Positions 6,145 through 59,745 are shown, counted from the stretch's first letter. The stretch is DNA of 64,000 nucleotides from Candidatus Magasanikiibacteriota bacterium (GCA_018651085.1 JABIEQ010000011.1:3563-67562), one strand, 5' to 3'. Notes: generated by a model not told the origin, from the sequence alone. Numbers and translations are program-made.

Positions 6145-6380
6145 TAGTGTAGCGGTGTTCTCCTAAAAAGTCAATAATTGCTTATAGAACCAGGAGTCCC
6201 TACCAATAGGATAAAATCTGCTTAATCCTACCATATCGTTTTTAAAAACAAAAGCCCCCCATGGGTATATCCTGTGTAAGATATGCACATAGGGGGCTCG
6301 AGGGGGTGCAATACATGCCACCCCTCATAGCGCTTAGGCGAAAGCGCTTCCCGTACCCTCCGTGGGGACTCCTTTGTCCC

Positions 6381-6680
6381 TCACTTATTGATTGTCGGAT
6401 TTCTCATGACCGTCGCCTTCGGCCTTTCACTGAACCCTCCATCTCCGCCCTCAGAACGCTCCATGAGCGCCTGAAGGTGCTCGACTTGACCACTGAGATC
6501 TTCCGGGACCTCAGGCTCGAGAGGATTGTCGTCCTGACGTTCTCCCTCTTCAAGATCTTGTGGTCTAACCCCAGCAGAGAACGCAGCTCCTTCCCACGGA
6601 GCCATCCTCCTTGTGACCTCAGTTGCAGGTCCTTCAAGCTCTTTCTCTCGAGATTTCGTTTCGAAACCAACAGTGCTCAT
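6381..6680 (-). CDS. Hypothetical acidic protein (99 aa) in GC-rich cassette 1.
   Basis: GGGAGG SD 5 nt upstream of the ATG. G/C-ending codons. Lies in a GC-rich block of about 530 bp within the AT-rich host. Low-complexity, acidic sequence. It could instead be a chance ORF in GC-rich non-coding DNA. Confidence 0.35.
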   Translation of the reverse strand: MSTVGFETKSREKELEGPATEVTRRMAPWEGAAFSAGVRPQDLEEGERQDDNPLEPEVPEDLSGQVEHLQALMERSEGGDGGFSERPKATVMRNPTINK

Positions 6681-6747
6681 GTTCCTCCCTTTGCTCTCCT
6701 TTTTTAAAATAAAAGAAGGTCATCCCTGACCCCCTTATAAGGTATTC

Positions 6748-6776
6748 ACTCTACCATTTTTGGCTTTCACTGTCAA
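6748..6776 (-). promoter_or_regulatory. Sigma70-like promoter for cassette 1 (TTGACA-N17-TAGAGT on the minus strand).
   Basis: Read directly on the reverse complement. The -35 box abuts the stop codon of the amidase gene. Confidence 0.45.
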
Positions 6777-6780
6777 TCTA

Positions 6781-7356
6781 TTAAAGCTTATTTAATAGAT
6801 CTATAATTTGTCTTTTAATTGCTTCTTTTTCTTCGCTACTATTATCTTCTTTTTCTCTTTCTTTCCTTTGTACTCTTCTCATTACTTCTTGGTACCACTT
6901 TTCCATATCTGGCTTGTGTCTTGTAATATCTCTATGCGTTATAATGTGATCTTTATCAAGTGACATCTGATATTTTTTTCCAATCATTTTAACTAACTCA
7001 ACAAGAGCATCCATTTGTTTTGGTGTCCATGTTTCACCTGCTTTCGCTTCACACTCTATCCCTAGACTGTATAGATTTGGATTGATATAGCGCTGTCCTT
7101 GTTTTTTTAATAGCATTATTGCTCTATTTGATGGTTCAACAATTTTCCCAGCATGCCAGGCGGTGTGATTATCTCGAACCATTTGTACCACCCGTCCATC
7201 TTTTGCTACAAGATAATGAGAAGATACTTGTGAACGACGTTGTTTAAACCATTCAATAGTTCCTCCCATGCTTCCAAGCATAATATGAAGTACAATGACC
7301 TCTGGCTTTAAGCTTCCACGAGAAGAAAAGTTTGGTGAAGGGATAAATTGAATCAT
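6781..7356 (-). CDS. N-acetylmuramoyl-L-alanine amidase (Amidase_2 / PGRP family).
   Basis: 191 aa. SSHYLVAKDGRVVQMV...TAWHAG motif of Amidase_2. Lysine-rich C-terminal tail. Confidence 0.7.
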   Translation of the reverse strand: MIQFIPSPNFSSRGSLKPEVIVLHIMLGSMGGTIEWFKQRRSQVSSHYLVAKDGRVVQMVRDNHTAWHAGKIVEPSNRAIMLLKKQGQRYINPNLYSLGIECEAKAGETWTPKQMDALVELVKMIGKKYQMSLDKDHIITHRDITRHKPDMEKWYQEVMRRVQRKEREKEDNSSEEKEAIKRQIIDLLNKL

Positions 7357-7452
7357 AGGCCTCCTTTGTTATCAATAAAAAACGCTACACTTAGTGTAGC
7401 GAAAGAAAAATTTCTCGTAAAGTGTAAAAAACACCAAAAAGGGTGACGTTTT

Positions 7453-10326
7453 TTAGCTTCCATGGCATTTTTTGTACTTTTTTCCACTTCCACAAGGACA
7501 AGGATCGTTTCTTCCTACTTTTTTTCCTTCCTCGTCTCGGGCTCTTTCTATCACTTTACCATTTTGTGTACTCTTTTTTGCTCCTTGAAGTGTCATCTTA
7601 TCGTTTGCCATGATTGATGGAGCAACTTGAAGACCAATGCCTACTTTGAAAAATGAATATACTACTTCTTTTTGGATACTTGAAAGTAGTTCATTAAACA
7701 AATGAAATGTTTCTTTTTTATATTCAATTAATGGATCTCGTTGTCCATATCCGCGTAACCCAATCCCAGCACGAAGATGGTTAATAGCAACGAGATGATT
7801 TACCCATAGGGTGTCAATTGCTCGAAGAAGTACTCCCTTTTCTATCTGATAGACTACTTCATGAGCCTTTTCTTCTTCAAGTTCATTCTCCTTTGCGACT
7901 TGTTTTAAATGCTCTTCAAAAGCACTATATTGTGTTTGTGCTTTTTCAATCATCATTGAAACAATCTTTTCTCTTGCTTCTACTTGTGCCAATTTGGTTT
8001 CTCCTGGTTTTTCTATTGCAAGCAGTGTTTCTTTTTCTTCTTCGGTAAAAGGAAAAATGGTTTTCATTGTTTCAAGAATTTCTTTTGTGTTCCACCCATT
8101 TTCTGATTCATTTTTTTGATCTCCTACCATCTCTGTGGTGTGATATGACACGACAAATTCAATTTCTGATTCAATCATTTCTAAAATCATCTCTTTAAGA
8201 GAACTGTATATTTTTTCTTTTACAGGACCTTCTTTTCCTTCATTTTCAATTTGTGCTTTTTCTTGTGCTTCTTTTTGTTTTTTGAGCATTTCCAATTGCC
8301 CTTCTGCAAGTGCAAGAATTTGTCGACGTCTTCCATAAATAACAGCTCGTTGTCTATTTAATACTTCATCGTACTCAAGAACATGCTTACGTACATCAAA
8401 ATGATGTCCTTCAACTTTCTTTTGAGCACCTTCTAGCATTCGTGTAATAAGCCGTTGTTCAATTGGCATATCGTCTGGAACGTTCATTCTGTCCATTGCT
8501 GACTTTAGTCTGTCTCCAGCAAATACACGCATCAAATCATCATCAGTTGAAACGAAGAACTGTGTTTCTCCTGGATCTCCTTGTCGTGCTGACCGTCCTC
8601 GAAGCTGATTATCAATCCGACGAGATTCGTGCCGCTCTGATCCTAAGACAAACAACCCACCAGCATTCACTACTTTGTCGTAGGCTTCTTTTGACGCTGG
8701 AATTCCCCCTAACTTAATATCAACTCCACGACCAGCAATATTTGTTGCAAGGGTCACAGAACCTGATCTTCCAGCTTGTGCAATAATTTCTCCTTCACGT
8801 TCGTGGTTTTTCGCATTTAGTATTTCATGCTCTACCCCATTTTGGGTCAAATACATACCGAGTTCTTCATTTTTTTCAACGGAAATAGTACCAACAAGTA
8901 CAGGCTGTCCTTTTTCTCTTGCTTCATTAATTTTTTGTATGATTGCCTTATGCTTTCCTGTATCTGTTTTATAAATTCTGTCAGGATGATCTACCCTTTT
9001 ATCAATTTCATTTGTCGGGATAACAATGACATCAAGATCATAAATCTTTTGAAATTCTTCTTCTTCAGTCACGGCAGTACCAGTCATTCCTGCAAGCTTC
9101 CCGTACATGCGAAATAAATTTTGAAACGTAATGGTTGCAAGTGTTTTACTTTCTCTTTTAATGGGCATGCCTTCTTTTGCTTCAATGGCTTGGTGTAGTC
9201 CACCTGAGTATCGTCGACCTGGCATTTTTCGTCCAGTAAATGAATCGATGATAACTACGTCTTCGCCTTCAACTACGTAGTCTTTATCTCGTTTAAACAA
9301 TGTTTCCGCTTTTAATGCTTGTTCTACGTGATGCACCATTTGAATACCACCTTCAGCATAAATATTATCTACTCCAAGGGCTTGTTCAAACTTTCTAATT
9401 CCTTCTTCAGTAAGCGTTGCGCTTCGTAATTTTTCGTCAACATTATAATCAGTTGCCTCATCAAGCTGAGTTACTAATCTTGCATATCTATAATATTGAT
9501 CAGTTGCTTCTTCTGCTGGTGCTGAAATAATAAGTGGGGTTCTTGATTCATCAATTAAAATAGAATCGATTTCATCGATTACGGCAAAATGCGTTTCATC
9601 TCCACTTCTCATGACCATCTGTTCAATCTTTTGAACCATGTTATCTCGAAGATAATCAAACCCAAATTCATTATTTGTTCCGTAGGTAATGTCACATTCA
9701 TACGCTTCCTTTCTTTCTGATGGACGAAGGTATGCATCTTCTACTTTAAAACTTCCAAGTTCATCTCTTTTTTGATCGGCTTCTTCTCCCTCTCCTGTCT
9801 TTTCTTTAGAAAATGCAGGGTCATACACATAACTTACTCGTTGGTTTTGAATAATTCCAACACGTAATCCTAAAAAGTCATAAATTTGTCCCATCCATAC
9901 GGCATCTCTTTTTGCAAGATAATCGTTTACCGTAATAACATGAATTCCTTTTCCTTCAAGCGCATTAAGATACACAGGAAGTGTTGCCACCAATGTCTTT
10001 CCTTCTCCGGTTCTCATTTCTGCAATTTTTCCTTGATGAATAACGGTTCCTCCAATGAGTTGCACATCATAGTGACGCATGCCCATGATTCTTACAGCCA
10101 CTTCTCGTACTGTTGCAAAGGCATCAACAAGAATGTCGTCTAATGTTTCACCTTTTTCTAATCGTGCTTTGAATTCTGCTGTTTTTCCTTTGAGTTCTTC
10201 GTCTGATAATGCTTGCATGTCTTTTTCCTTTGCATTCACAGCATTAACAATAGCATCCATTTTTTTCAGGCTTTTTTCGTTCGGGTCACCGAACACTTTG
10301 TTATAGACTTTTTTGAGATTACTCAT
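7453..10326 (-). CDS. secA: Preprotein translocase ATPase SecA.
   Basis: 957 aa. Walker A MRTGEGKT, DEAD-like DEIDSILIDE, and the C-terminal zinc-binding CPCGSGKKYKKCHG. Confidence 0.9.
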   Translation of the reverse strand: MSNLKKVYNKVFGDPNEKSLKKMDAIVNAVNAKEKDMQALSDEELKGKTAEFKARLEKGETLDDILVDAFATVREVAVRIMGMRHYDVQLIGGTVIHQGKIAEMRTGEGKTLVATLPVYLNALEGKGIHVITVNDYLAKRDAVWMGQIYDFLGLRVGIIQNQRVSYVYDPAFSKEKTGEGEEADQKRDELGSFKVEDAYLRPSERKEAYECDITYGTNNEFGFDYLRDNMVQKIEQMVMRSGDETHFAVIDEIDSILIDESRTPLIISAPAEEATDQYYRYARLVTQLDEATDYNVDEKLRSATLTEEGIRKFEQALGVDNIYAEGGIQMVHHVEQALKAETLFKRDKDYVVEGEDVVIIDSFTGRKMPGRRYSGGLHQAIEAKEGMPIKRESKTLATITFQNLFRMYGKLAGMTGTAVTEEEEFQKIYDLDVIVIPTNEIDKRVDHPDRIYKTDTGKHKAIIQKINEAREKGQPVLVGTISVEKNEELGMYLTQNGVEHEILNAKNHEREGEIIAQAGRSGSVTLATNIAGRGVDIKLGGIPASKEAYDKVVNAGGLFVLGSERHESRRIDNQLRGRSARQGDPGETQFFVSTDDDLMRVFAGDRLKSAMDRMNVPDDMPIEQRLITRMLEGAQKKVEGHHFDVRKHVLEYDEVLNRQRAVIYGRRRQILALAEGQLEMLKKQKEAQEKAQIENEGKEGPVKEKIYSSLKEMILEMIESEIEFVVSYHTTEMVGDQKNESENGWNTKEILETMKTIFPFTEEEKETLLAIEKPGETKLAQVEAREKIVSMMIEKAQTQYSAFEEHLKQVAKENELEEEKAHEVVYQIEKGVLLRAIDTLWVNHLVAINHLRAGIGLRGYGQRDPLIEYKKETFHLFNELLSSIQKEVVYSFFKVGIGLQVAPSIMANDKMTLQGAKKSTQNGKVIERARDEEGKKVGRNDPCPCGSGKKYKKCHGS

Positions 10327-10386
10327 AGCTACATCTTGATATAAAACGGCTCTATTCTATCATAAGCCCCCTCTTATGTCTACCGT

Positions 10387-10416
10387 TTGCCTATTCTCTT
10401 TTTTTTAGGTTATACT
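10387..10416 (+). promoter_or_regulatory. Sigma70-like promoter (TTGCCT-N18-TATACT) upstream of the small peptide cassette.
   Basis: Read from the sequence. Sits about 25 nt upstream of an AAGGAGG SD. Confidence 0.35.
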
Positions 10417-10446
10417 CCTTTACGAACCCCCTAAGGAGGATTCACC

Positions 10447-10563
10447 GTGGACGATGAAGAACGTCAAAAAGCAGAGCAAGAGCTTAATGAAGTAGTGTGG
10501 TATCCTGCCGCCCTCATTTTGGCCATTGCGAGCCTTTTGTTCCTTCTTGAACTCTTCTGGTGA
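10447..10563 (+). CDS. Small hydrophobic peptide (38 aa, GTG start; VDDEERQKAEQELNEVVWYPAALILAIASLLFLLELFW).
   Basis: Perfect AAGGAGG SD 6 nt before an in-frame GTG. A single TM helix. Followed by two hairpins, the second being ACACCGCCAGAGAGGCGGTGT plus a T-tract. Moderately GC-enriched relative to the flanks. Confidence 0.35.
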   Translation: MDDEERQKAEQELNEVVWYPAALILAIASLLFLLELFW

Positions 10564-10641
10564 GTGGACGCCTTGAGGAAGCGTCCCCACCCAATAAACT
10601 ACATACACCGCCAGAGAGGCGGTGTATTTTTTATTTCTTGT

Positions 10642-13440
10642 TTAAGTATTCAATATATTTAAATTAGGGTATTTCTTTTGCAAGGATATTTTCTCTTCAT
10701 GAGGTAGACTACGAAGGTCAAGATTCTGACCAACATCTCCAAAGGTTACGCCTTCCAGGCTCGTTATACTACGAAGGTTAAGACTTCCACCAACATCTGA
10801 CAAGGTTACACCTTCCAGACTGGTTATACTACGAAGGTCAAGATTTCCACCAACATCTGGCAAGGTTACACCTTCTAGACTGGTTATACTGCCAAGGTAA
10901 AGATTTCCATCAACATCTGGCAAGGTTACACCTTCCAGGCTTGTTATGCTGTTAAGGTAAAGATCCCTACCAACATCTCCAAAAGTCACACCTTCCAGGC
11001 TCGTTATGCTGTTAAGGTAAAGACTTCCACCAACATCTGGCAAGGTTACACCTTCCAGACTGGTTATACTGTCAAGGTAAAGACTTCCACCAACACCTGG
11101 TAAGGTTACACCTTCGAGGCTTGTTATGCTGTTAAGGTAAAGATCCCTACCAACATTTCCAAAAGTCACACCTTCCAGACTGGTTATACTACGAAGGTTA
11201 AGATCCCTACCAACATCTGGCAAGGTTACGCCTTCCAGGCTCGTTATACTGCGAAGGTCAAGACTCCCACCAACATCTCCAAAGGTTACACCTTCCAGGC
11301 TCGTTATGCTGTTAAGGTAAAAATTTCCACCAACATCTGGCAAGGTTACACCTTCTAGGCTGGTTATACTACGAAGGTCAAGATTTCCACCAACATCTGG
11401 TAAGGTTACACCTTCCAGGCTTGTTATGCTGTTAAGGCTAAGATCCCCACCAACATTTCCAAAAGTCACACCTTCCAGACTGGTTATACTACGAAGGTTA
11501 AGATCCCTACCAACATCTGGCAAGGTTACGCCTTCCAGGCTGGTTATACTGCCAAGGTAAAGATTTCCACCAATATCTGGCAAGATTACACCTTCCAGGC
11601 TGGTTATACTGTTAAGGTAAAGATCCCCACCAACATCTGACAAGGTTACACCTTCTAGGCTGGTTATACTACGAAGGTCAAGATTTCCACCAACATCTGG
11701 CAAGGTTACACCTTCTAGACTGGTTATACTGCGAAGGTCAAGATTCCCATCAACATCTGGCAAGGTTACACCTTCTAGACTGGTTATACTGCGAAGGTCA
11801 AGATTCCCATAGTGAAATAATGTATCTCCATTAAGTGCTTCGTTGTGGGTCGTAGATATTTTATCTTTTGTCATTTCGGGATACTTGGTTTGCAAGGCAA
11901 AGGCTAAATCTTCTTTTATATCAATTCCTCTATCTCGTCTGTTATCAATTATTTCTTGGACACGTGAATCTCTTCCATAACCAAACCCTTGTACTTTTTC
12001 ATTAATCTCATAAAGAAAAGTAAGATCTTGTGGAGAAAGTGGCTCGGTTGCTTGATGTCGTTTATATATATCGGTCAATTGCTTCATATCAGCATCTTTC
12101 TTTTGATACACATCTCCATCTGGAAATTCAGTAAGTTTGTTTCCTAAAATAGCAGTCTTTGCCATGTACGAATCAATATTTTGCTTTACTGCGCGACCAC
12201 GAACCTCTGCAATATTATTACCTTTCATACGTATCGCTAAACGTGGAATAGTTGCTTCATTATTTTCGTCTTCAGAATAATATACATGAAAGTCACCTGC
12301 AGCAACTTGAGACGAAGCAAATCCTTCCCCAGCTGTACACCATCCAGTTCCTTTGCCTTGTAAAGAATCAACCAATTTCATATGATCAGATCCTTTGGGA
12401 TATGTTACCCAAGTACCTTTTGTAACTTGTAAAACAGACTCATCTATCTCAACTAATTGTTTAAAGGCTTCGTTATACAATGTACGAAAATCTGTATGAG
12501 AAAGGAGTTCCTCAATGTCTTCGAGAGGTTTGTCTATATCTTCATACCCAAGCATTTTCTTTTGCCTTTCTTCAAGTACCTCTAACTTTTGTGAAAATTT
12601 TTCTATTTCTTTATTACGATCACTTTCATCTTCTGGAAGACGTTCTAAAAGACGTCTGTCCTTACTAATACCTTTTTCTAGCGCTGCTTTTGTTTTGGTT
12701 TGTATCCCTTCTTTTTGTAGTAATCCTTCTTTTTTTGTAATACCACTGTTAATATTGTCATAGGAACGTAATCTATCTAATTGTCTTTTTACATCATTTT
12801 TCTCTTCAAGTAATGAAATATATTCTTTACTAAATTGTGATTGTAAAAGTTCCATAGCATAAACCAGAGCCTCTTGGTTTAACTCTGGATATGGAGCTAC
12901 AGTGTCTTTTGATCGAGGAATAAAAGTATCACTATTTTGTGCCTCAGGGTCTCCTGCATCAGGGTTTCGTCTTAATTTTTTCATCCCTTCAAAAGCCCAA
13001 TATTTGAGCCACACAGGGTACCCTTCTGCATCTGAAGAAGAAAAATAATTGATCCAATAATCTAAACTTGCACGCTGATCTCTTCCAATAACTTCTCCAG
13101 CTTGTGAACGCAATTCCGGAGTAATCTCTGGAATTTCTCTCCCCTCATTACGTGCTACTCGTTGTTGTTGAACAAAAAAACTATCAGGCACATCTTTTGC
13201 TTTCATAACATACAGCTCATGGGCTGCTTGTTTCATCCGTGTTACTACTTCTTGATCTGTTTTTGCATCTTCCAAAATATCTTGCCACATCTGTAACCAG
13301 CCCTCAATCTTTTTTCTTGGTTGTTCTTCCTTCTTTTCCTGTCGTTCTTCACGTTGCCATTGAAGATGTTCTATGATTGGCTCCTTATGAAGTGATGGAT
13401 CTTGCTGATGCAAAAAATGCTCTGGATTTCTTGGTCGCAT
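10642..13440 (-). CDS. Large putative surface protein (932 aa): N-terminal domain of unknown function plus about 18 tandem 20-aa leucine-rich repeats.
   Basis: The C-terminal half is made of near-identical NLDLRSITSLEGVTLPDVGG units, an LRR-like pattern LxxLxLxxIxxL. The N-terminal 550 aa has no recognisable motif. Confidence 0.7.
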   Translation of the reverse strand: MRPRNPEHFLHQQDPSLHKEPIIEHLQWQREERQEKKEEQPRKKIEGWLQMWQDILEDAKTDQEVVTRMKQAAHELYVMKAKDVPDSFFVQQQRVARNEGREIPEITPELRSQAGEVIGRDQRASLDYWINYFSSSDAEGYPVWLKYWAFEGMKKLRRNPDAGDPEAQNSDTFIPRSKDTVAPYPELNQEALVYAMELLQSQFSKEYISLLEEKNDVKRQLDRLRSYDNINSGITKKEGLLQKEGIQTKTKAALEKGISKDRRLLERLPEDESDRNKEIEKFSQKLEVLEERQKKMLGYEDIDKPLEDIEELLSHTDFRTLYNEAFKQLVEIDESVLQVTKGTWVTYPKGSDHMKLVDSLQGKGTGWCTAGEGFASSQVAAGDFHVYYSEDENNEATIPRLAIRMKGNNIAEVRGRAVKQNIDSYMAKTAILGNKLTEFPDGDVYQKKDADMKQLTDIYKRHQATEPLSPQDLTFLYEINEKVQGFGYGRDSRVQEIIDNRRDRGIDIKEDLAFALQTKYPEMTKDKISTTHNEALNGDTLFHYGNLDLRSITSLEGVTLPDVDGNLDLRSITSLEGVTLPDVGGNLDLRSITSLEGVTLSDVGGDLYLNSITSLEGVILPDIGGNLYLGSITSLEGVTLPDVGRDLNLRSITSLEGVTFGNVGGDLSLNSITSLEGVTLPDVGGNLDLRSITSLEGVTLPDVGGNFYLNSITSLEGVTFGDVGGSLDLRSITSLEGVTLPDVGRDLNLRSITSLEGVTFGNVGRDLYLNSITSLEGVTLPGVGGSLYLDSITSLEGVTLPDVGGSLYLNSITSLEGVTFGDVGRDLYLNSITSLEGVTLPDVDGNLYLGSITSLEGVTLPDVGGNLDLRSITSLEGVTLSDVGGSLNLRSITSLEGVTFGDVGQNLDLRSLPHEEKISLQKKYPNLNILNT
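10699..11808. repeat. About 18 tandem copies of a 60-bp coding repeat inside the LRR protein gene.
   Basis: The unit (plus strand, about 90% identical between copies) is ccaacatctggcaaggttacaccttccaggctggttatactacgaaggtcaagatttcca, seen directly in the sequence. Confidence 0.85.
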
Positions 13441-13470
13441 AAAACAAATATTATCTAACGTGTAAGACTC

Positions 13471-13986: not shown

Positions 13987-13987
13987 A

Positions 13988-14335: not shown

Positions 14336-14368
14336 ATAGTAAGTCTATAAGAATTAAATAACATGTTT

Positions 14369-15343: not shown

Positions 15344-15360
15344 GTATCATAACTGTGCTA

Positions 15361-17359: not shown

Positions 17360-17460
17360 TCTTGGATATCCAAGATTATTTTTTACTCACAGTATTCCTA
17401 TACTAGAAATTCTATGGGTACTCTGGAGTTCGCGACAGCGAACCGTTACCCCCTCCCTTA

Positions 17461-17913
17461 TCAGCGGTTGTCCCTACCGAAGACCTGAGACATCATGCTC
17501 TCGACAGTGACCGTTCCTCGTCCGGGGTAAAAGGATCCCCGTAGGGTACCCATCCGAACGCTTTTTTGGGTTATAGTTTGGATCAGCTTCCGCAGATCCC
17601 CGGCCATTTCCTCACCCAAGATCCCTGCTTGATCTCTGTTCACTCCCCCGAGAACGATACTGATGGCCTTCTTGTTGAACCAAGCAGCTCCACCTGTAGG
17701 AGGCATCTTTCTGACTAGTTCATGAAGAATCCTCGTTCTCTGATCACTCGTGAAAAGTCCTCTTCTTGAGGGTGTAACCCCCACAAAAAGAAGGAGGAAG
17801 GGAGTTTGAATCTCCCTAGAGACATGGATCATTGCTTCAAGAGCTCGCAGGAACTGCTCTCGTGAGACAAACTCTGACCCAAACTGTAGACGCACTGATA
17901 TCTCCTTTTTCAT
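17461..17913 (-). CDS. Hypothetical protein (150 aa) in GC-enriched cassette 8.
   Basis: GGAGG SD then ATG. G/C-ending codons (CTG, GAG, CGC). The block 17420-17990 stands out as GC-enriched against AT-rich flanks. Confidence 0.45.
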   Translation of the reverse strand: MKKEISVRLQFGSEFVSREQFLRALEAMIHVSREIQTPFLLLFVGVTPSRRGLFTSDQRTRILHELVRKMPPTGGAAWFNKKAISIVLGGVNRDQAGILGEEMAGDLRKLIQTITQKSVRMGTLRGSFYPGRGTVTVESMMSQVFGRDNR

Positions 17914-17991
17914 ATAACCTCCACTCCCTTGGCTTTTAGTAACATAGCACCAGCCCCAACTGATGCTACCCTTATAACTTCCAAGATCTTA

Positions 17992-18020
17992 GATATAACA
18001 CTTCTTTTATAACATTGTCA
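17992..18020 (-). promoter_or_regulatory. Sigma70-like promoter for cassette 8 (TTGACA-N17-TTATAT on the minus strand).
   Basis: Read on the reverse complement, immediately beside the rpoD terminator hairpin. Confidence 0.45.
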
Positions 18021-18023
18021 ATT

Positions 18024-25781: not shown

Positions 25782-25854
25782 AAAAGCAGCCTTTCATTAA
25801 AAGGCTGCTTTTGCACGAACCCGACGATCTCCCCCTCGAGATGCCGTCGGGTTC
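25782..25854 (-). terminator. Tandem hairpins: an AT-rich host-like terminator and a GC-rich cassette hairpin.
   Basis: AAAAGCAGCCTTTCATTAAAAGGCTGCTTTT, followed by GAACCCGACG-N18-CGTCGGGTTC which contains CTCGAGGGGG. Sits between the polytopic membrane gene and the cassette 2 ORF. Confidence 0.55.
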
Positions 25855-25881
25855 AGGTTGAAAGAACGTGGTGGCTTGGCC

Positions 25882-26769
25882 TCAGCCCTCGGCGAGGAGC
25901 AGACACATCATGGCGCAGATGACGTGTTGGCCGAGAAGGCTTTCTTTGGCGAGCCACAGGATGTCGGCGCGGGTGCACCACCGGTCCCCTTCGATGAGCT
26001 CCATGTCCTCTCGTCGTCCCGGGATCATGAAGCAGTCATCTTGCTTCCCGAGAAAGCGAGCTCCATCCTGTTGAACCGAAAGAGGGTCGGTGACGCTCTT
26101 CTGGTTGAACAACTCCGAGTAGGGCGGCTTGTTGCCACCATGGAGCTGGATAAAATTCGCCAACGAAGCATGGAGAGGACTCGTGACCACAACGTGACCA
26201 TCAAGGTTGCTGTTCCCAGGTTCGACTTTGGTTCGAAGGAGAATCAAGTCCTCCTCTTCGTCACGGATGATGACGATAGCGCCAGGGTGATTCCCGACCC
26301 TACGCACCATGGGCTGAACCCAGTCATGGACCTCTCGCCCCGCTGCGTGAACACCAACTCCCACGACTTCGAAGAAGCTGAGGCTGCTCTGGCCCTCTTG
26401 AGGAGGCCTCTGAGCCATGACCATGGTGTCTGCAGCCAAGAAGACGAGTCGCTCTTTCCCGGTCTTGACGTCTTGCCCGGTACTGAAGCTCTTGAAACCC
26501 GTGAAGGGCACGACTTCACTCGGAGTGCTCTCGAAACCTTCGAGGGCCGATTCTGGCCGACTGAAGTTCCAAGGCCCCTCGAAGGTCACCCGCATGAGGC
26601 TCTGACCAATTACCCAGCCAGAGAGTTTTCCTCGTCTATCACTGGGCTTGTTTGCCCACTCGAAGATCTCGGACCACCCCAAAAGGAGTTCTCCGAAACC
26701 GACCGCATTTGCGGCCATCTTAGACCGCTCCTGGGCCGCCTTGACCCAGTCTTGGACACTTTCGTCCAT
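25882..26769 (-). CDS. Hypothetical protein (295 aa) in GC-rich cassette 2.
   Basis: AGGAGGG SD 4 nt before the ATG. G/C-ending codons. A fully overlapping antisense ORF also exists. The minus strand is preferred because of the SD and the tandem downstream hairpins. Confidence 0.45.
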   Translation of the reverse strand: MDESVQDWVKAAQERSKMAANAVGFGELLLGWSEIFEWANKPSDRRGKLSGWVIGQSLMRVTFEGPWNFSRPESALEGFESTPSEVVPFTGFKSFSTGQDVKTGKERLVFLAADTMVMAQRPPQEGQSSLSFFEVVGVGVHAAGREVHDWVQPMVRRVGNHPGAIVIIRDEEEDLILLRTKVEPGNSNLDGHVVVTSPLHASLANFIQLHGGNKPPYSELFNQKSVTDPLSVQQDGARFLGKQDDCFMIPGRREDMELIEGDRWCTRADILWLAKESLLGQHVICAMMCLLLAEG

Positions 26770-26777
26770 CTTCCCTC

Positions 26778-26793
26778 CTATCCAATTGGATAG
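26778..26793. promoter_or_regulatory. Perfect 16-nt palindrome CTATCCAATTGGATAG abutting the cassette 2 SD; candidate operator.
   Basis: Seen in the sequence, immediately 5' of GGAGGGAAG-ATG on the minus strand. Confidence 0.3.
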
Positions 26794-26978
26794 CTTTTCG
26801 TCTTTCTACATCATCCCCCATGGATTCAGCAGTCTAACGACAATCTGTGACACCCCATATATTTCTATATAGTGAGATGTTTTTATCTATATATAATGTT
26901 TTATATACAAATAAAAAAGGAGGTATAGTGTACCTCCAATAGATGAATATATACTACTTTTCCTTTTTTGTCAATGAT

Positions 26979-38604: not shown

Positions 38605-38633
38605 ATAGATACTATCACCATACACTAATTTAG

Positions 38634-38648
38634 AGGGTTAAATCAAAT
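38634..38648. repeat. 15-nt direct repeat AGGGTTAAATCAAAT, left copy flanking cassette 3.
   Basis: Identical 15-mer at 39593-39607. The two copies bracket the GC-rich cassette. Confidence 0.6.
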
Positions 38649-38659
38649 GCTCTACCCCA

Positions 38660-38688
38660 TTGACAAAACTCCCTCTTTTTACTATAGT
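38660..38688 (+). promoter_or_regulatory. Sigma70-like promoter for cassette 3 (TTGACA-N17-TATAGT).
   Basis: Consensus -35 with exact 17-nt spacing, about 115 nt upstream of the SD. Confidence 0.5.
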
Positions 38689-38805
38689 TTTTTATTGAAT
38701 GCGTTCTTTTATAAAGACCTTTTCCTTTTCTTGTTTCCTTACGTCTAGGTACTAGGAGAAGGAGAAGGTCGTTTTGACCTGAACTGAGGCTTCGCAATCA
38801 CCACA

Positions 38806-39357
38806 ATGAATCGCAACCGAGAGGACGTTATGAACGCTTCCATCGTACTGATCTTGAAGTTCTGGGAAAGCCTGGGCAACGCCATCGACGGAGACGAACT
38901 CTATCCTCATCTTTTCCTAGGTGACTCCCACACCTACGTGTCCTCCCAGGGCAATATGTGGGGGCCGAGCGATGGCCGTCACTACGTCGACAAGCTGCTG
39001 TGGAACACGTTGGGGAAACAGCAGCTTCCAGCCCCGACCTTACCCGGTCGTGCTTTCAGCGTCGTGACGTGGGCCGACCGCCCGGTGGAAGGACTCGATG
39101 AGATCTTCGGCCCAGCAGTTGATAACCCCGAGGCCCTTGATGAGATGCTCAAGAAGGGCTGCGGTGGTTGGTTTGAGTTCTCGGAGACCTCGAACAACTG
39201 GGATGTCCGCCATTACGGCTCTGTCTTCCTGCTTCCCACGGGAGCAAAGATCCTCGTCACCATCTGCTACGATCGCAACCAGTCTGCCACCGCTGAGGTG
39301 CTCGAGGCGGAACGCACGGCCCGGCGTGATAAAGCCCTCATCGGGCACTGGATGTGA
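38806..39357 (+). CDS. Hypothetical protein (183 aa) in GC-rich cassette 3.
   Basis: AGGAGAAGGAGAAGG SD region. G/C-ending codon usage. Downstream GC hairpin GCACGAACAACGTTCGTGC. No recognisable motif. Confidence 0.5.
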   Translation: MNRNREDVMNASIVLILKFWESLGNAIDGDELYPHLFLGDSHTYVSSQGNMWGPSDGRHYVDKLLWNTLGKQQLPAPTLPGRAFSVVTWADRPVEGLDEIFGPAVDNPEALDEMLKKGCGGWFEFSETSNNWDVRHYGSVFLLPTGAKILVTICYDRNQSATAEVLEAERTARRDKALIGHWM

Positions 39358-39592
39358 TCAGGTCAGAATACCCATGAAAGCCGCGGAATCGGCGTCGAGT
39401 TATTATGACGACTAGCACGAACAACGTTCGTGCCAAGAAGCTCATGTGACTCGGCGCCCCGCGGCTACCGACTATCTTTTTTACTTTATAGAAAGGATTG
39501 AGGAATAAAAAACACCTATATATAGGTGTTTTTTTGTTTCTTGATTTTATATACACATGTTCTACACACTCTATCACCAGAGCCCCATTTGA

Positions 39593-39607
39593 AGGGTTAA
39601 ATCAAAT
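39593..39607. repeat. 15-nt direct repeat AGGGTTAAATCAAAT, right copy, 20 nt upstream of the dnaB start.
   Basis: Identical to 38634-38648. Confidence 0.6.
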
Positions 39608-50715: not shown

Positions 50716-50881
50716 AGCGTTTTTATCGTAAGTAGGAAGACAAGCATTTTCCCCACTTTTCCCCACGTGAATCCATTATATCCCACTTTTATGGTTTTTC
50801 CAACTCTTTTTAGGAATATTTGTCCACTTTTTGGGGATAACCTGAAAATAAGCCCCCGGTTTCTATTTCTCTTTGACTGTA

Positions 50882-50910
50882 TTGACGATATGATCGTTTT
50901 GTGGTATATT
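50882..50910 (+). promoter_or_regulatory. Sigma70-like promoter for cassette 4 (TTGACG-N17-TATATT).
   Basis: Read from the sequence, about 100 nt upstream of the SD. Confidence 0.45.
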
Positions 50911-50930
50911 TTTTTGTCGAGGGTTGTTTT

Positions 50931-50972
50931 CTTGCAGAAAGTACATATGTCCCTTTGTGTTTTTTCTGCAAG
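50931..50972 (+). promoter_or_regulatory. 10-bp stem hairpin (CTTGCAGAAA ... TTTCTGCAAG) in the predicted 5' UTR of the cassette 4 gene.
   Basis: Perfect inverted repeat with a 22-nt loop, located between the predicted -10 box and the SD. Confidence 0.4.
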
Positions 50973-51014
50973 AAAGCCGCTTGTGGCTAAATACTCACAC
51001 CAAGGAGGGACGAG

Positions 51015-51371
51015 ATGAAGATCCGGCTGAAGATCAATCGGGAAGAGATTGTACCCAAAGAGAAAGGGATCCTGACGGGTCTTCTCGAGTACTTTGGGAA
51101 AGGACTTGAAGTTGCCAATAGCCAGATGGTGCTGACCTTTGAGGTCACATGCCATCTCACCGGACCTCAAGGCCCGGAAGACATTATGACCATCTGGATG
51201 AACAAAGAAGAAGCCCAAGAGCTCTCTGACGCAGGGGTCCCCCTTCTCACCGTGATGGCGCCTCGGTCAATGCTTCAAAACCGCAGAGGGCTCACCTACG
51301 ACGCCCCATGGCAAGACATCGAGGTCCTCGAAGAGGACCAGCCACCACCCCCGCCGCTCTCGGCAGCCTGA
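51015..51371 (+). CDS. Hypothetical protein (118 aa) in GC-rich cassette 4; ends ...EEDQPPPPPLSAA.
   Basis: AAGGAGGG SD 6 nt before the ATG. G/C-ending codons. Followed by a GC hairpin and then the AT-rich terminator at 51476-51504. Confidence 0.5.
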   Translation: MKIRLKINREEIVPKEKGILTGLLEYFGKGLEVANSQMVLTFEVTCHLTGPQGPEDIMTIWMNKEEAQELSDAGVPLLTVMAPRSMLQNRRGLTYDAPWQDIEVLEEDQPPPPPLSAA

Positions 51372-51475
51372 CAACCAACAAGGAGAAGAAATGGCACGCG
51401 CACCACCCTAAAAAAAGGGATGAGCACCGTGCCATCCCGACCTATGTGTTTGATATCTCAAATCTATAGGTTTAT

Positions 51476-51504
51476 AAAAAACTGCTACATATAGCAGTTT
51501 TTTG
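51476..51504 (+). terminator. Rho-independent terminator between cassettes 4 and 5.
   Basis: AAAAACTGCTACATATAGCAGTTTTTT. Confidence 0.6.
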
Positions 51505-51525
51505 TTTTCACTTTTCACTCTACCC

Positions 51526-51554
51526 TTGACATCTCCTAGTTATTATGGTTAGAT
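51526..51554 (+). promoter_or_regulatory. Sigma70-like promoter for cassette 5 (TTGACA-N17-TTAGAT).
   Basis: Read from the sequence, about 50 nt upstream of the AGGGAGG SD. Confidence 0.4.
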
Positions 51555-51604
51555 TGTCTGTTTTGGGTACAGATAGATAACGAAACCTTAGACAAGGGAG
51601 GACA

Positions 51605-51859
51605 ATGGTCACTATTCGAAACCTCCTAGAGGTTTACCACGAAGAACGGCTCCTGTGGGATTTACTTGGAGTCACTCCAAAACGCCAGAACGGTTTCTAT
51701 GAAATCGCCTGGTCTATTACGGTGGCACTGAGCTGGGAATACTCAATCCCAACATGGCAAGTCTCGAGACTTCCACAGGAGTACCTTCTTGGGTCAGAGT
51801 CCACCCGTTACTACTACAGGCTGTGTCTGTTTGTAGAAAACGGGAAGGCTCAACCCTGA
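51605..51859 (+). CDS. Hypothetical protein (84 aa) in GC-rich cassette 5.
   Basis: AGGGAGG SD. G/C-ending codons. Followed by a perfect 13-bp hairpin terminator. Confidence 0.5.
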   Translation: MVTIRNLLEVYHEERLLWDLLGVTPKRQNGFYEIAWSITVALSWEYSIPTWQVSRLPQEYLLGSESTRYYYRLCLFVENGKAQP

Positions 51860-51873
51860 AGAGAGACCACAAA

Positions 51874-51915
51874 GACCCGCCAAGCAGTTGCTTGGCGGGT
51901 CTTCACATTTATATT
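51874..51915 (+). terminator. Rho-independent terminator of cassette 5.
   Basis: GACCCGCCAAGCA-GT-TGCTTGGCGGGTC followed by a T-rich tract. Confidence 0.65.
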
Positions 51916-52100
51916 ACTAACTAAAGCGATATACTTAACAAAATATGATATATTTGTCAATATGCACCATCGTCCTTATCACACTATGGGGAACAAGAAT
52001 ATGACACTTCGTATGTTTGCTCCCCTAAATACCTGTTCAGTTTGGTGCTCGTGGGGAGGCACAACACAAACTGAATTCAATAGTGTGGAGGAAACGAACG

Positions 52101-52622
52101 ATGAGCACTGGCAACAAGGGTGGCGAGCTGCTGCCGCGCCTCAAGTACGAGTGGATCCCGGACCAAGGGGCCTTCCGGGTGACCCAGGAGGTCAGGCACT
52201 CCTCGAAGGAGTCGGCGATGCGTGCCCTGTGGGGTGTGTTTCGCGAAGGCTGGATCACGCGGGACAACTTCCTGACGATGCGCAGCCGCCTGATGGAGTC
52301 GAGACTGCCCGAAGGACAGATCGACCCGATCGTCAAGCGCTGCGAAACTGGGAAGGGGATCCGGCTCATGACCTACGCTGGTCCCTGGACCCAGTTCATC
52401 TACTCCCAGGCGGCACTCCGTCAGATCATGGAAAACTGCGTCGGACAGCTTCTGCTGACCCAGTACCAGTCTGAGGAACTCCTGAAGGAAGCCCTCGAAG
52501 AGTTCGAGGATCTTCCTGAAGAGCGCCAGCCGCTTGATGACATCCCGACCTCTGGTCTCCTCGAGATCCACATCATCGTGGGCGCCGGCCGGAAAGCCTC
52601 TCCGTCGCCAGACACTCATTAG
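52101..52622 (+). CDS. Hypothetical protein (173 aa) in GC-rich cassette 6.
   Basis: GGAGGAAACGAACG-ATG start. Strongly G/C-ending codons (CTG, GAG, CGC, GAC). Downstream GC hairpin GCCCACACCTTCGGCGTGGGC. Confidence 0.5.
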   Translation: MSTGNKGGELLPRLKYEWIPDQGAFRVTQEVRHSSKESAMRALWGVFREGWITRDNFLTMRSRLMESRLPEGQIDPIVKRCETGKGIRLMTYAGPWTQFIYSQAALRQIMENCVGQLLLTQYQSEELLKEALEEFEDLPEERQPLDDIPTSGLLEIHIIVGAGRKASPSPDTH

Positions 52623-52758
52623 CCCACACCTTCGGCGTGGGCACAGGCTCACGTCTGGAGGGACGTGATGAAGGTGGGACGGCGTTTCGCTCACGCGATA
52701 CGCCGACCCTGCAGTGCACTTTATGTATATAAAGTTCAGTGCAGGAAAAAATGTACAT

Positions 52759-52797
52759 AAAAATACACCAATTTAGTTGGTGTATTTTTATTTTTTA
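52759..52797. terminator. Bidirectional terminator shared by cassette 6 and uvrC.
   Basis: AAATACACCAATTTAGTTGGTGTATTT followed by a T-tract, immediately after the uvrC stop. Confidence 0.6.
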
Positions 52798-54050: not shown

Positions 54051-54052
54051 GC

Positions 54053-56626: not shown

Positions 56627-56784
56627 CATACGACAAAAAGACCCGAAAACCACGCGTATGGTGGGGGTCTTTGCTTATAGTTATTTCAATGAACAATGGC
56701 TATTATCTGCTAATTTAGGGCATTTGTCAATTCTTTGCCCCTTCGTTATACTACTCATAAGTATTTTACTCTTAAATATATACT

Positions 56785-57267: not shown

Positions 57268-57300
57268 TCTCATCACCATAAAAAAACATGACCCACAAGG

Positions 57301-57918
57301 TCATGTTTTTGGTTTTGTAATTGTTAGTTGCCACCAAGCTTTGGTCTTTGCAAGAAACTCTCTCATACCCATCCCCCATACTTTTCCAAATACACTTGAT
57401 CCTTCCTTATCGTCGGCAGCGAGTCCAATAGTATCTATTCCCTGCCCTTCACAAAAGAATCGTATGCGCGGAAGATGAAATTGCTGAGAAATAACAACGG
57501 TATCCGTTATTTGAAATTCTTCTTTTGCTCGTAAACAACTTAGGTAGGTTCTATACCCTTTCCCGTCTTTTTTAATGGCTTCAGGTGGAACACCAAGTTC
57601 TATTGCTAATTTTTCCATCGCATCAACCTCATTTTTTCCTCGAAATGATCCATCGTCTCCCGTCATGATAAGTGTTTCTACCTTTCCTGCTTTATATAAA
57701 TCTACGGCTGTTTCTACTCGCCTTCTTTGCATTTTAGACATGACGGTTTCGTAATCCATACCGCCACCAAAAACAAATGCTGTTGTTGATGTTGGAACTT
57801 CTTCTACCGTATCTACAATATTTGTATTAAATGTCTGTATCAGTGCAGGAGCACGAAAAAATATCCCTACAATAAAAAGGCCTATGAAAAAAATAATTGC
57901 TATGTATGTGTAACGCAT
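57301..57918 (-). CDS. SanA/YdcF-like (DUF218) membrane-anchored protein.
   Basis: N-terminal TM helix and the DUF218 core (FVFGGGMD ... LIMTGDDGSFRGKNEVDAM ... VISQQFHLPR). Confidence 0.5.
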   Translation of the reverse strand: MRYTYIAIIFFIGLFIVGIFFRAPALIQTFNTNIVDTVEEVPTSTTAFVFGGGMDYETVMSKMQRRRVETAVDLYKAGKVETLIMTGDDGSFRGKNEVDAMEKLAIELGVPPEAIKKDGKGYRTYLSCLRAKEEFQITDTVVISQQFHLPRIRFFCEGQGIDTIGLAADDKEGSSVFGKVWGMGMREFLAKTKAWWQLTITKPKT

Positions 57919-58128
57919 AGGTTAGTAGTGTATCACACGTTTTTTTGTATTAAAAAATATCTACACAACTAGGTAGATATTCTTTTCCTTTCGTCCTGTC
58001 ATAATCAGTCACATATGGACTCATCAGTTTCGGTCTCACCGAAAGAGGATGCCGATCTGTGATCGGCTTCCCTCCCTGTCCCCAATTTCATGGGGGTCTA
58101 TAGACCCGTTTCATGATCTCCCTCCTTG

Positions 58129-59649
58129 TCAGTATGCTCGATTCAGTTGTGCTACGTGTTCCCTCATGACCTGGATGAGGTCATATGGGCCGACAGGTCT
58201 CCCGAGGACATCCTCAACGAGTTGGAACCCTGTACTGACACCTCCCTTGCAGAAGATGTTCGTCTGCAACCATCGGTTGAGCCCCTCAAAGTTTCCCTTT
58301 CGGATCTCCACCTCGATGTTGGGGTGCACTCCTTCGATCTCTCGCCAGAACATGGCTGCAACCATGTTGCCGATGCCGTAGGTGCCGTAGTACCCGATCC
58401 CCATGAAGGGATGGGGGTCTCTCAGACACCCCAAGGCGTCACTCTCGGGCTCTACCCCGAGATAGTGCAGTGAGAGCTCGTTCCACCTGGCGGAGAAATC
58501 TTCCACCTCAAGGCGCCCCTCGATGAGCTCCTGGTAGATTCTCACTCGCAGGAGGATGTGTGAGTTGTAGGTCAGCTCGTCGGCTTGCACCCGCACCGTT
58601 TGACGGGTGCATCTGTTGAGTGCTGAGTAGAGCTTCTCTGGACTCCACTCCTTGAGTTCAGGGAACATGTCTCCCATCATATCGAGCATCAGCTCGAGGA
58701 AAGGTAGGCTTCTTCCCACCCGACACTCGTAGAACCGCGCGATACTCTCGTGAAGACCTGTCGACGCCGGTCTTGCACCAGGGGTGTACTTCCACTCAGG
58801 AAGAAACCCTTGCTCGTAGCGAGCGTGCGCGGCCTCGTGCAGTCCAGGAAGGAGCAGCCGCCACCACTTCTCGTACTCAAGTGGAATACTGATCCGAACG
58901 TCATCTGGCGCCGCAATGGGTGCACAGAAGGGATGACTGCTTTGAGCAATCTCGAGCTTGTCGACCTCCAATCCCATCCGGTTTAAGCACCCCATGGTGA
59001 AAAGCCTGAATGCATTGGCCTCATGGGGCTTGTTGAGTGCCGGAATCTCACCCAAATCAGGAAAGGCCACGGCTTCCTCCACGAGTGGTTGAAGATCTCT
59101 ATGGAGATCTTCGAGAATATCAAGGAGCCACTTCGTTGAGGGAAGTCCCGGCTCCTGCGTACGCGCAAGACCCGCGTAAGGATCATCTGGATCCGCGGCG
59201 AGCCCCTTCATACGCTGGAGCTCGACGATTTTCTTCAAATGCCCTCCAAGGTGCTCCATGGTTCGCCGACCGTCTTTTCCGGCTTCTTCCCAGGCACTCT
59301 GTCCCACCATGCCGGCGTGAACAGTCTGCCTCACCAATTTCATTGGCAAGGTTCTTGGCAGCTGGCTTTCTCTGAGTGTTGCCCTTATGATCCCCATTTG
59401 CATCTCGGAGAGATCCCCCGGATTGGCCAACAGCCTGAGGGCGTCCGCGCGAAATTCCTCAGAACGCCAGAGTACTTGCTGCCGTCCGGAAATTTCAGCC
59501 GTTTTGCTTGCGAAGTATTCACCAGGATGCTGGTGATCGGTCGTCGCCATCTGCCATTCGAGCTCCCCCTTGAGCCCCTCAAGACACCAGATCTGCTTGA
59601 CCGTTGCGAGCCACGCCACAAACGCTTGCTGCTGCTTACTCATCGTCAT
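58129..59649 (-). CDS. M32-family metallo-carboxypeptidase (carboxypeptidase Taq-like) in GC-rich cassette 7.
   Basis: HEXXH region LHEAAHARYEQG. RVQADELTYNSHILLR. YLGVEPESDALGCLRDPHPFMGIGYYGTYGIGNMVAAMF; all match the Taq carboxypeptidase signature blocks. G/C-ending codons. Start set at MTMSKQQQ. Confidence 0.7.
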   Translation of the reverse strand: MTMSKQQQAFVAWLATVKQIWCLEGLKGELEWQMATTDHQHPGEYFASKTAEISGRQQVLWRSEEFRADALRLLANPGDLSEMQMGIIRATLRESQLPRTLPMKLVRQTVHAGMVGQSAWEEAGKDGRRTMEHLGGHLKKIVELQRMKGLAADPDDPYAGLARTQEPGLPSTKWLLDILEDLHRDLQPLVEEAVAFPDLGEIPALNKPHEANAFRLFTMGCLNRMGLEVDKLEIAQSSHPFCAPIAAPDDVRISIPLEYEKWWRLLLPGLHEAAHARYEQGFLPEWKYTPGARPASTGLHESIARFYECRVGRSLPFLELMLDMMGDMFPELKEWSPEKLYSALNRCTRQTVRVQADELTYNSHILLRVRIYQELIEGRLEVEDFSARWNELSLHYLGVEPESDALGCLRDPHPFMGIGYYGTYGIGNMVAAMFWREIEGVHPNIEVEIRKGNFEGLNRWLQTNIFCKGGVSTGFQLVEDVLGRPVGPYDLIQVMREHVAQLNRAY

Positions 59650-59716
59650 TGCCCTGTCCTCTTGTCGCTGGTTTTTGCCACGTGTATACAGCATGTCTAC
59701 ACAACTTGCGTTCACT

Positions 59717-59745
59717 AACGTAATGGATATTTCCTTCTACGTCAA
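59717..59745 (-). promoter_or_regulatory. Possible promoter for cassette 7 (TTGACG-N17-TACGTT on the minus strand, weak -10).
   Basis: Read on the reverse complement, between the uvrB terminator and the M32 gene. Confidence 0.25.

Follow-up and report, generated by a model that had tools for sequence, protein, structure and literature searches.

The stretch of DNA analysed here (64,000 nucleotides of a Candidatus Magasanikiibacteriota bacterium, GCA_018651085.1 JABIEQ010000011.1:3563-67562; hereafter the window) belongs to the core chromosome of an AT-rich, uncultured marine Candidatus Magasanikbacteria population of the Candidate Phyla Radiation (CPR/Patescibacteria). The source samples seem to be marine ones of the Saanich Inlet type. 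It contains sharply bounded GC-rich blocks, each of which holds a gene led by a strong Shine-Dalgarno (SD) site and occupies an intergenic spacer. On balance, these blocks are probably laterally acquired, moron-like accessory transcription units, located at operon boundaries of an AT-rich, SD-independent CPR chromosome and retaining a GC-rich design.

Composition, initiation signals and layout of the blocks

Composition profiles over the window revealed a background of about 0.36 GC with sharp steps at the block limits. The GC content was 0.51-0.62 inside eight blocks and 0.27-0.36 in their flanks, and the blocks, 0.3-1.8 kb in size, covered 6007 of the 64,000 nucleotides (9.4% of the window). 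GC-rich blocks in an AT-rich genome, as described in an earlier note on this DNA, were thus borne out by step changes in GC and by the contrast in GC content at third codon positions (GC3), which was 0.21-0.36 in native open reading frames (ORFs) and 0.48-0.79 in the SD-led ORFs of the blocks (hereafter cassettes); codon-position GC was bimodal. Codon usage in cassette versus native genes was 76% versus 16% for ATC, 41% versus 10% for CTC and 62% versus 18% for GAG, and the cassette proteins contained fewer F, Y, M, I, N and K residues and more G, A, R and P than the native proteins. A change-point scan placed the block limits as follows.

Block 1: 6254-6770
Block 2: 17416-17971
Block 3: 25803-26856
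Block 4: 38730-39472
Block 5: 50976-51442
Block 6: 51591-51904
Block 7: 52118-52717
Block 8: 57992-59747
Weak ninth block: 10414-10631, holding an SD-led ORF of 38 aa (the weaker block that the earlier note had placed near 10387-10640)

A strong SD motif preceded every cassette ORF, as had been claimed before (8/8), compared with 2 of 49 native genes (Fisher p = 2.7e-8), a count in which all possible start codons among the first 40 codons were considered. Related genomes were equally SD-poor (SD before 19 of 411 native ORFs). Native genes of the window, e.g., MraZ (50284-50766), L21 (43861-44169) and the gene at 29345-29737, were almost never SD-led, and in several of them a TATAAT-like box lay only a few bases upstream of the start codon. 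This points to leaderless or SD-independent initiation in the organism. A search for the 16S rRNA 3' end, which would bear any anti-SD, found no rRNA gene in the loci retrieved. An Amidase_2 gene (6781-7356, minus strand) that adjoins cassette c1 also had a strong SD (AAAGGAGG), a feature found in only one other AT-rich native gene; it may have been acquired earlier and have ameliorated since.

The coding sequences also differed in mRNA folding, expressed as z-scores against dinucleotide-preserving shuffles. The mean z was -2.8 for the window cassettes (11 segments) and about -2.4 for cassettes in locus L085 and related loci (9 segments), as against -0.03 for native coding sequences (8 segments) and -0.64 for UvrA coding sequences of ordinary GC-rich bacteria (20 segments). 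The GC-rich 3' hairpins gave z values from -3.1 to -7.5 in six cassettes and weaker ones in c2 (-1.1) and c8 (-2.3), so that the earlier claim of a GC-rich hairpin at each block end held, with weaker folding in these two.

The cassettes and their putative signals are listed below; the real genes of blocks 1, 2, 3 and 8 lie on the minus strand.

c1, 6254..6776, minus: promoter TTGACA (6776-6771), 17-nt spacer, TAGAGT (6753-6748); 5' stem-loop; SD GGGAGG
c1 ORF, 6381-6680, minus: 99 aa, acidic, probably disordered
c1 3' hairpins, 6254-6349, minus: U-run at the end; folding z of the 3' untranslated region (UTR) -4.3
c2, 17416..18021, minus: TTGACA (18021-18016), poor -10 (TTATAT); 5'UTR of about 85 nt; SD GGAGTGGAGG
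c2 ORF, 17461-17913, minus: 150 aa, orphan; small 3' hairpin near 17425-17445
c3, 25803..26856, minus: SD AGGAGGG; GC-rich 3' hairpin at about 25818-25857, then a native-type AT-rich terminator
c3 ORF, 25882-26769, minus: 295 aa, one-domain EvaA-like NDP-hexose 2,3-dehydratase
c4 with flanking direct repeats, 38612..39607, plus: repeats at 38612-38648 and 39571-39607, the latter overlapping the DnaB promoter
c4 promoter, plus: TTGACA (38660), 17-nt spacer, TATAGT (38688); long 5'UTR; SD GAGAGGA
c4 ORF, 38830-39357, plus: 175 aa, orphan; public records contain the identical protein
c4 3' end, 39379-39466, plus: long GC-rich hairpin, then U-run; 3'UTR z -7.5
c4 second terminator, 39509-39536, plus: AT-rich
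c5, 50882..51505, plus: TTGACG (50882), 17-nt spacer, TATATT (50910); 5' stem-loop 50933-50975; SD AAGGAGGG
c5 ORF, 51015-51371, plus: 118 aa, orphan
c5 3' end, plus: hairpin 51391-51438; AT-rich terminator 51474-51505
c6, 51526..51905, plus: TTGACA (51526), 18-nt spacer, TAGATT (51555); SD AAGGGAGGA
c6 ORF, 51605-51859, plus: 84 aa, orphan
c6 3' hairpin, 51872-51903, plus: perfect, 14-bp, GC-rich; z -7.0
c7, 51935..52791, plus: TTAACA (51935), 17-nt spacer, CAATAT (51963); 5' stem-loop; SD GGAGGAAA
c7 ORF, 52101-52622, plus: 173 aa
c7 3'UTR, 52640-52745, plus: conserved three-hairpin element
c7 bidirectional terminator, 52757-52791: common to c7 and UvrC
c8, 57957..59745, minus: TTGACG (59745-59740), 17-nt spacer, TACGTT (59722-59717); SD AAGAGGA
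c8 ORF, 58129-59652, minus: 507 aa from the SD-led ATG, M32 carboxypeptidase with HEAAH motif
c8 3'UTR hairpins, 57992-58128, minus: GC-rich
c8 direct repeats, 57957-57970 and 59693-59706: 14 nt each
c9 (weak ninth unit), 10414..10632, plus: SD AAGGAGG; terminator hairpin 10607-10632
c9 ORF, 10447-10563, plus: GTG start, 38 aa, hydrophobic C-terminal stretch; a 38-aa gene is called in the JGI contig

In transcribed orientation the parts of each unit follow in the same order: the AT-rich edge carries a sigma-70-like promoter, and then come a 5'UTR of 45-140 nt that often opens with a stem-loop, a strong SD, the ORF and GC-rich 3' hairpins. The hairpins are followed by a U-run in c1 and c4 and by no more than a weak T-rich tail in c6, and a second, native-type AT-rich terminator often lies behind them. 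The proposal that the blocks are self-contained promoter-SD-ORF-hairpin units of foreign composition in intergenic spacers was thus supported. The statement that each block contains exactly one ORF is true of the SD-led ORF only, because GC-rich DNA carries several long overlapping ORFs. Similarly, a TTGACA or TTGACG box 17 nt from a TAnnnT element, which had been ascribed to at least six blocks, was found as a near-consensus -35 with an exact 17-nt spacer in c1, c3, c4, c5 and c8; the spacer of c6 is 18 nt long, the -10 boxes of c2 and c7 are poorer, and the boxes of c3 sit upstream of the previous gene's terminator. Equally good promoters precede the native genes UvrA, L21 and SecD. This implies that the SD, and not the promoter, is cassette-specific.

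We suggest that a sigma-70 consensus promoter at the AT-rich edge would drive each islet and that the strong SD would start translation on a GC-rich, heavily folded mRNA, whereas the AT-rich native mRNAs are unfolded and hardly ever SD-led. The GC-rich stem-loops, some with a U-run and usually backed by a native-type AT-rich terminator, would close the unit. The smallest units (c1, c6 and c9) are read as putative coding units only from SD-start geometry and public gene calls. In the JGI contig a 99-aa gene is called at the place matching c1, and NCBI and JGI records contain the 99-aa protein; the coding status of c1 is less certain than that of the other cassettes because its GC3 is only 0.48.

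A 17-nt near-repeat, GGAGGGACG[A/T]GATGAAG, occurs at 51004-51020, covering the SD and start of c5, and at 52657-52673, inside the conserved c7 3'UTR hairpin; it brackets the c5-c7 array (p ~0.007, before multiple-test correction).

Assemblies, products and insertion sites

The window carries native housekeeping genes (secA, secDF, murB, rpoD, dnaG, alaS, dnaB, recR, clpB, mraZ/W and a mraY-like gene) as well as uvrABC, an RNase J-like gene, the L21 gene and a deoxysugar/glycosylation operon; no tRNA genes were found in it. The abrupt composition steps, and nothing more, would speak for an assembly chimera, contamination or an engineered construct, possibilities that the earlier note had raised. 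DNA 100% identical to the window, including the cassette junctions spanned, is present in GCA_018701095.1 and GCA_018647845.1, ENA contigs are 99.99% identical to it, and a 452-kb JGI contig has the same called gene order and the same junctions. Different projects and assemblers produced these assemblies, Logan lists the cassette proteins on up to 31 contigs (the longest 863 kb), and units of the same kind occur in related wild genomes. As the same DNA appears in several independent public assemblies of one population, in which we take it to be fixed, we reject all three kinds of artefact; the chance that one of them explains the blocks is negligible.

The few differences between the window and two ENA contigs (L003/L004), at window positions such as 17642, 25884 and 25977, were all A/C (T/G), and three of four lay inside cassettes. 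Variants of the cassette proteins in low-coverage ENA contigs were mostly T>G or A>C changes as well, a pattern that we take to be sequencing error, and the idea of cassette hypermutation was dropped.

By its sequence, the product of c8 is a full-length M32 carboxypeptidase: it matched Pfam PF02074 (3e-87) over profile positions 5-487 of 489, and its translation contains HEAAH, an HExxH zinc motif. Its closest non-self homologue among 5.8 billion proteins was 34% identical, and its tblastn matches in plasmids were at most 29% identical. The earlier note had recognised a family for the M32 peptidase alone; c3 turned out to match one too, namely Pfam PF03559 (Hexose_dehydrat, 3.5e-17) and EvaA in PDB (4j7g, 8e-12). 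The match is limited to one domain (residues 129-276 of 295 aa, aligned to EvaA residues 96-231), and the closest non-self homologues of c3 in the same 5.8 billion proteins were 32-40% identical over half its length. Cassette c3 lies directly downstream of the native deoxysugar/glycosylation operon with its RmlD-like, FdtA and epimerase genes, beside which it may have been recruited.

No Pfam family was found for c1, c2 and c4-c7, and neither PHROGs nor NCBIfam gave a match for any cassette protein. These six products would be lineage-restricted orphans, to which we assign no role. The sole PADLOC match among the cassette proteins, which would make c2 a Cas8f protein, had an E value of 0.038 and was discarded as chance-level; c2 had no match among PDB sequences either. 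Viral contigs contained no relatives of c2, c4, c7, c8 or the cassette of related locus L093. Single-sequence AlphaFold models were too poor to use for c4 (pLDDT 40) and for c2 (pLDDT 39). Rfam at gathering thresholds gave nothing in the window or in seven relatives, and only chance-level matches at E values up to 1.

An exhaustive HMMER pass over 1.84 billion representatives revealed a single homologue of c7, the protein P0063 (27% identity), which is encoded elsewhere in the same genome in a GC-rich island of two tandem cassettes with the same layout. The promoter/5'UTR and the three-hairpin 3'UTR (folding z -6.05 in c7) were more conserved between the two cassettes than the coding sequence. 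The possibility that the c7 3'UTR is a 32-codon ORF was rejected, and we read it as RNA structure, because only one of five differences from the paralogue was synonymous and hairpin 1 carried a compensatory change (CACGUC/GACGUG versus CACGCU/AGCGUG). The island with P0063 (L085 9845-11135, outside the window) lies between recQ and the L10/L12 genes; one of its cassettes encodes P0063, and the other has a 67-aa ORF (10838-11041) with an AAGGAG SD and a perfect TTGACA-17-TATAGT promoter.

Scanning species-representative genomes for UvrA and metagenomes for UvrC yielded about 35 related loci, whose UvrA was 73-77% and UvrC 53-64% identical to those of the window; in the metagenomes the UvrC scan found no species between 64% and 100% identity. 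The gene order UvrB-DUF218-UvrA-UvrC-MraZ-MraW-ClpB is conserved in the relatives, and two spacers of the window could be compared directly. The UvrB/DUF218 gap, 1864 nt in the window with c8, was -2 to 23 nt in L006, L008 and L116 and 648 nt in L091. The UvrC/MraZ gap, 2021 nt in the window with c5-c7, was 105-262 nt in L006, L008, L091 and L092, and it carried 766-1789 nt of other DNA in L093, L095, L116, L010 and L105, the inserts of L093, L095 and L116 having a GC content of 0.54-0.56. Hence related genomes lacking the blocks at the same loci, a comparison proposed in the earlier note, exist for both spacers. No tblastn match to the window cassette proteins was found in 2.4 Mb of related loci. 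As the junctions are either empty or differently filled, they appear to be recurrent insertion hot spots with rapid turnover. The cassette layout was also seen in L009, L010 and L085.

GC-rich genes were also present in L097 (4300-5502, GC3 0.91) and L106 (15710-16999, GC3 0.74). They encode multi-pass membrane proteins of 400-430 aa that resemble NhaA-type antiporters by eye and are 35% identical to each other, so GC-rich genes added in this clade include more than small orphans.

The direct repeats around c4 are 37 nt long and 81% identical, with perfect 9-nt and 14-nt ends, and the exact 14-mer occurs at the two flanks only; those around c8 match at 13 of 14 positions and are likewise found at the two flanks only (p about 0.02). 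When random window pairs served as the null, the repeats of c8, the c5-c7 array and the distant 37-nt pair of c4 were the only ones to stand out. The repeats of c4 and c8 would fit, but do not prove, illegitimate or microhomology-mediated integration.

Two tandem repeats were noticed in native genes. The ORF of 932 aa at 10642-13440 (minus strand, no Pfam family) is associated with about 18 head-to-tail 60-nt units at 10585-11904, which correspond to 20-aa repeats that are 80-89% identical, and contig JABGSG010000024.1 ends inside this array. The rpoD ORF (18058-19518, minus strand) has imperfect tandem repeats of 36-42 nt at 19202-19450 (TTTTTTCACCGGCTTCTTTTTTG, plus strand) in the sigma-70 N-terminal region.

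Origin and apparent upkeep of the GC-rich composition

The pooled GC contents of the window cassettes at the three codon positions (0.604/0.419/0.658) fell on the regression of GC1 and GC2 against GC3 derived from 95 unrelated loci, and the cassettes therefore show no sign of amelioration. Their pooled codon usage correlated best (r about 0.9) with that of ordinary bacteria of 60-64% GC. Both observations fit a recent arrival of the window cassettes.

In two pairs of sister genomes, L093/L095 and L009/L010, the same junction holds orthologous cassettes whose promoter and UTR sequences are conserved. In L093/L095 (L093 9482-10102, L095 11506-11979) the cassette proteins were 45% identical and GC3 was 0.90 in both. 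Native fourfold-degenerate sites of this pair differed by 39-71%; G/C was kept at 62% of native sites (289/466) and at 91% of cassette sites (39/43; Fisher p = 8e-5). In L009/L010 (L009 4773-5075, L010 12741-13043) the corresponding values were 53% protein identity, GC3 of 0.78 and 0.68, native differences of 62-67% (saturated), and G/C kept at 34% of native sites (79/229, equal to background) and at 67% of cassette sites (14/21; p = 0.008). UvrA, UvrC and most native neighbours were 78-94% identical within the pairs. The synonymous sites of these orthologous cassettes have not drifted as neutral amelioration would have them drift. Cassettes can therefore be old, with fast-evolving proteins, and their GC-rich composition appears to be maintained beyond what plain recent transfer explains.

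The mraZ gene beside the L093/L095 cassette was near identical between the two genomes (fourfold-site difference 0.03; other native genes listed 0.26-0.71). Ahead of the conserved promoter of this cassette (L093 about 10160-10185, L095 about 12040-12060, minus strand) lies TTATCCACA, a perfect match to the DnaA-box consensus.

According to the reading that we consider probable, the cassettes would have been acquired laterally from SD-using bacteria with a GC content of about 50-65%, or from mobile elements of such bacteria, and integrated, probably by illegitimate or microhomology-mediated events, at permissive junctions that are recurrent hot spots in the clade. After arrival the proteins would evolve fast while GC-rich third positions and structured UTRs are kept, as seen in the sister genomes. 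The composition would be held by selection, most plausibly on mRNA folding, on mRNA stability or on codon choice, or by a GC-biased process, and would reflect more than a lack of amelioration. Several points weigh against this reading. Among the three cassettes searched (c3, c7 and c8), none had a donor-like homologue with more than 40% identity: the best identities of c3 and c8 were at most 34-40%, and c7 had no homologue outside its own genome. This absence is not expected under recent transfer, and it makes an endogenous origin conceivable for at least the orphan cassettes. The GC-retention test comes from two cassette pairs of relatives and not from the window's own cassettes. Direct repeats are clear for c4 and c8 only, and the 37-nt repeat of c4, 81% identical with perfect ends, would be an odd target duplication. 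Expression of the cassettes, the start sites of their transcription and its termination are predictions from sequence.

One alternative, already considered in the earlier note, is that the cassettes are plain recent transfers from a high-GC donor, GC-rich because they arrived too recently to ameliorate, with nothing maintaining their composition. Their foreign composition agrees with this: codon-position GC lies on the equilibrium line of a donor of 50-65% GC, donor-type SD sites are kept, the window cassettes are absent from every relative examined and the copies of the 14-nt repeat of c8 differ by one base only. However, very large databases, including assemblies of this organism, contain no near-identical or even moderately similar donor gene for the cassettes searched, and c7 and P0063 are both GC-rich at only 27% identity. 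Moreover, the orthologous cassettes of both sister pairs predate speciation and have kept their GC-rich third positions while native fourfold sites lost G/C partly (L093/L095) or to background (L009/L010). We therefore regard recent transfer by itself as unlikely. We give about the same low credence to an endogenous origin, in which the units were born in the lineage by duplication or de novo, without a foreign donor, and became GC-rich through selection for folded, stable SD-dependent mRNAs or through a local GC-biased process, e.g., biased gene conversion at recombination hot spots. The lineage-restricted orphan products, the only homologue of c7 being in a second cassette of the same genome, UTRs more conserved than coding sequences, the maintained GC3 of orthologues and the excess mRNA structure are all consistent with it, and the near-identical MraZ in L093/L095 hints at recent recombination. 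On the other hand, the enzyme families of c8 and c3 are widespread and otherwise missing from these sites in relatives, as would be expected had the two genes been gained from outside. Amino-acid composition, GC1 and GC2 show the shifts of a true GC-rich proteome, SD sites are foreign to the host's own genes, and there is no known mechanism by which single transcription units would gain GC.

It is conceivable, with similarly low probability, that the GC-rich, SD-led, heavily folded units form a distinct compartment maintained by selection, a second expression regime in which SD pairing would serve to translate stable, structured mRNAs, beside the SD-independent AT-rich core. Their fast-evolving products may act at the host-cell interface, and the units would not be decaying foreign DNA. 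A family of mobile promoter-gene cassettes, as the earlier note had also suggested, is far less probable; it would be a single family, either integron-like or a small non-autonomous element, with a recombinase dedicated to its movement. The stereotyped layout, structured 3' ends loosely resembling attC, the tandem c5, c6 and c7 and the direct repeats around c4 and c8 would agree with such a family. Yet blastn-short comparison of all UTRs revealed no shared cassette ends or motifs except in one paralogous pair, the units have their own promoters and are scattered among housekeeping genes, the repeats differ in length (14 versus 37 nt) and most cassettes have none, and the window contains no integrase, transposase, reverse transcriptase or phage gene.

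Significance and comparison with known systems

Roughly a tenth of this 64-kb core chromosome consists of single-gene units that are unlike the host in composition, codons, initiation signal and mRNA folding. CPR bacteria have tiny genomes and host dependencies that are unknown, and accessory genes are obvious candidates for lineage-specific biology. If our reading is confirmed, a GC-rich, SD-led gene in an SD-poor genome would provide a sequence rule for finding the accessory or effector repertoire, the cassettes would be a natural test case for selection on composition and mRNA structure, and junctions such as UvrC/MraZ would be mapped insertion hot spots for gene uptake by reduced genomes without mobile-element machinery.

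The two cassettes with recognisable products can be compared with known enzymes. The c8 protein resembles M32 (Taq-type) carboxypeptidases in its full-length match and HEAAH motif and differs by its divergence (at most 34% identity). The c3 protein shares the Hexose_dehydrat domain and the 4j7g match with EvaA-type dehydratases but has one domain in 295 aa, not the full-length architecture of a 471-aa chain with twice the 203-position Pfam domain; EvaA and the homologues among the database matches (451-473 aa) are about 1.6 times longer.

Like integron cassettes, the units are small, have one ORF, often encode orphans and end in imperfect inverted-repeat structures, and c5-c7 stand in tandem. 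Integron cassettes, in contrast, are promoterless, arrayed at intI/attI and share the attC architecture, whereas the units described here have their own promoters and are dispersed, and no integrase domain was found in the ORFs of the window. At the level of sequence comparison, their 3' hairpins have nothing in common between cassettes.

Acquired genomic islands and islets with atypical composition are commonly viewed within the amelioration framework of Lawrence and Ochman. The cassettes share with them atypical GC, codon usage and translation signals, variable presence among relatives and recurrent sites. They differ in being single genes of 0.3-1.8 kb associated with no tRNA, integrase or IS element and carrying flanking repeats only around c4 and c8; in addition, no donor was identified for the cassettes searched, and the orthologues in sister species are not ameliorating.

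The term moron-like refers to phage morons, defined in HK97/HK022-type phages as independent transcription units (PMC3594210). A moron is a single gene that brings its own promoter and terminator, has been inserted between two genes which are neighbours in relatives, and differs from its flanks in GC. Sequence features predict an own promoter and terminator for c1 and c4-c8, and the deviating GC and the evident addition relative to related genomes were observed. However, these units are located in a bacterial chromosome among uvrABC, mraZ, dnaB, rpoD and secA/DF, without PHROG matches or phage genes around them; they are dense, with 8-9 in 64 kb, and their GC-rich state is apparently maintained.

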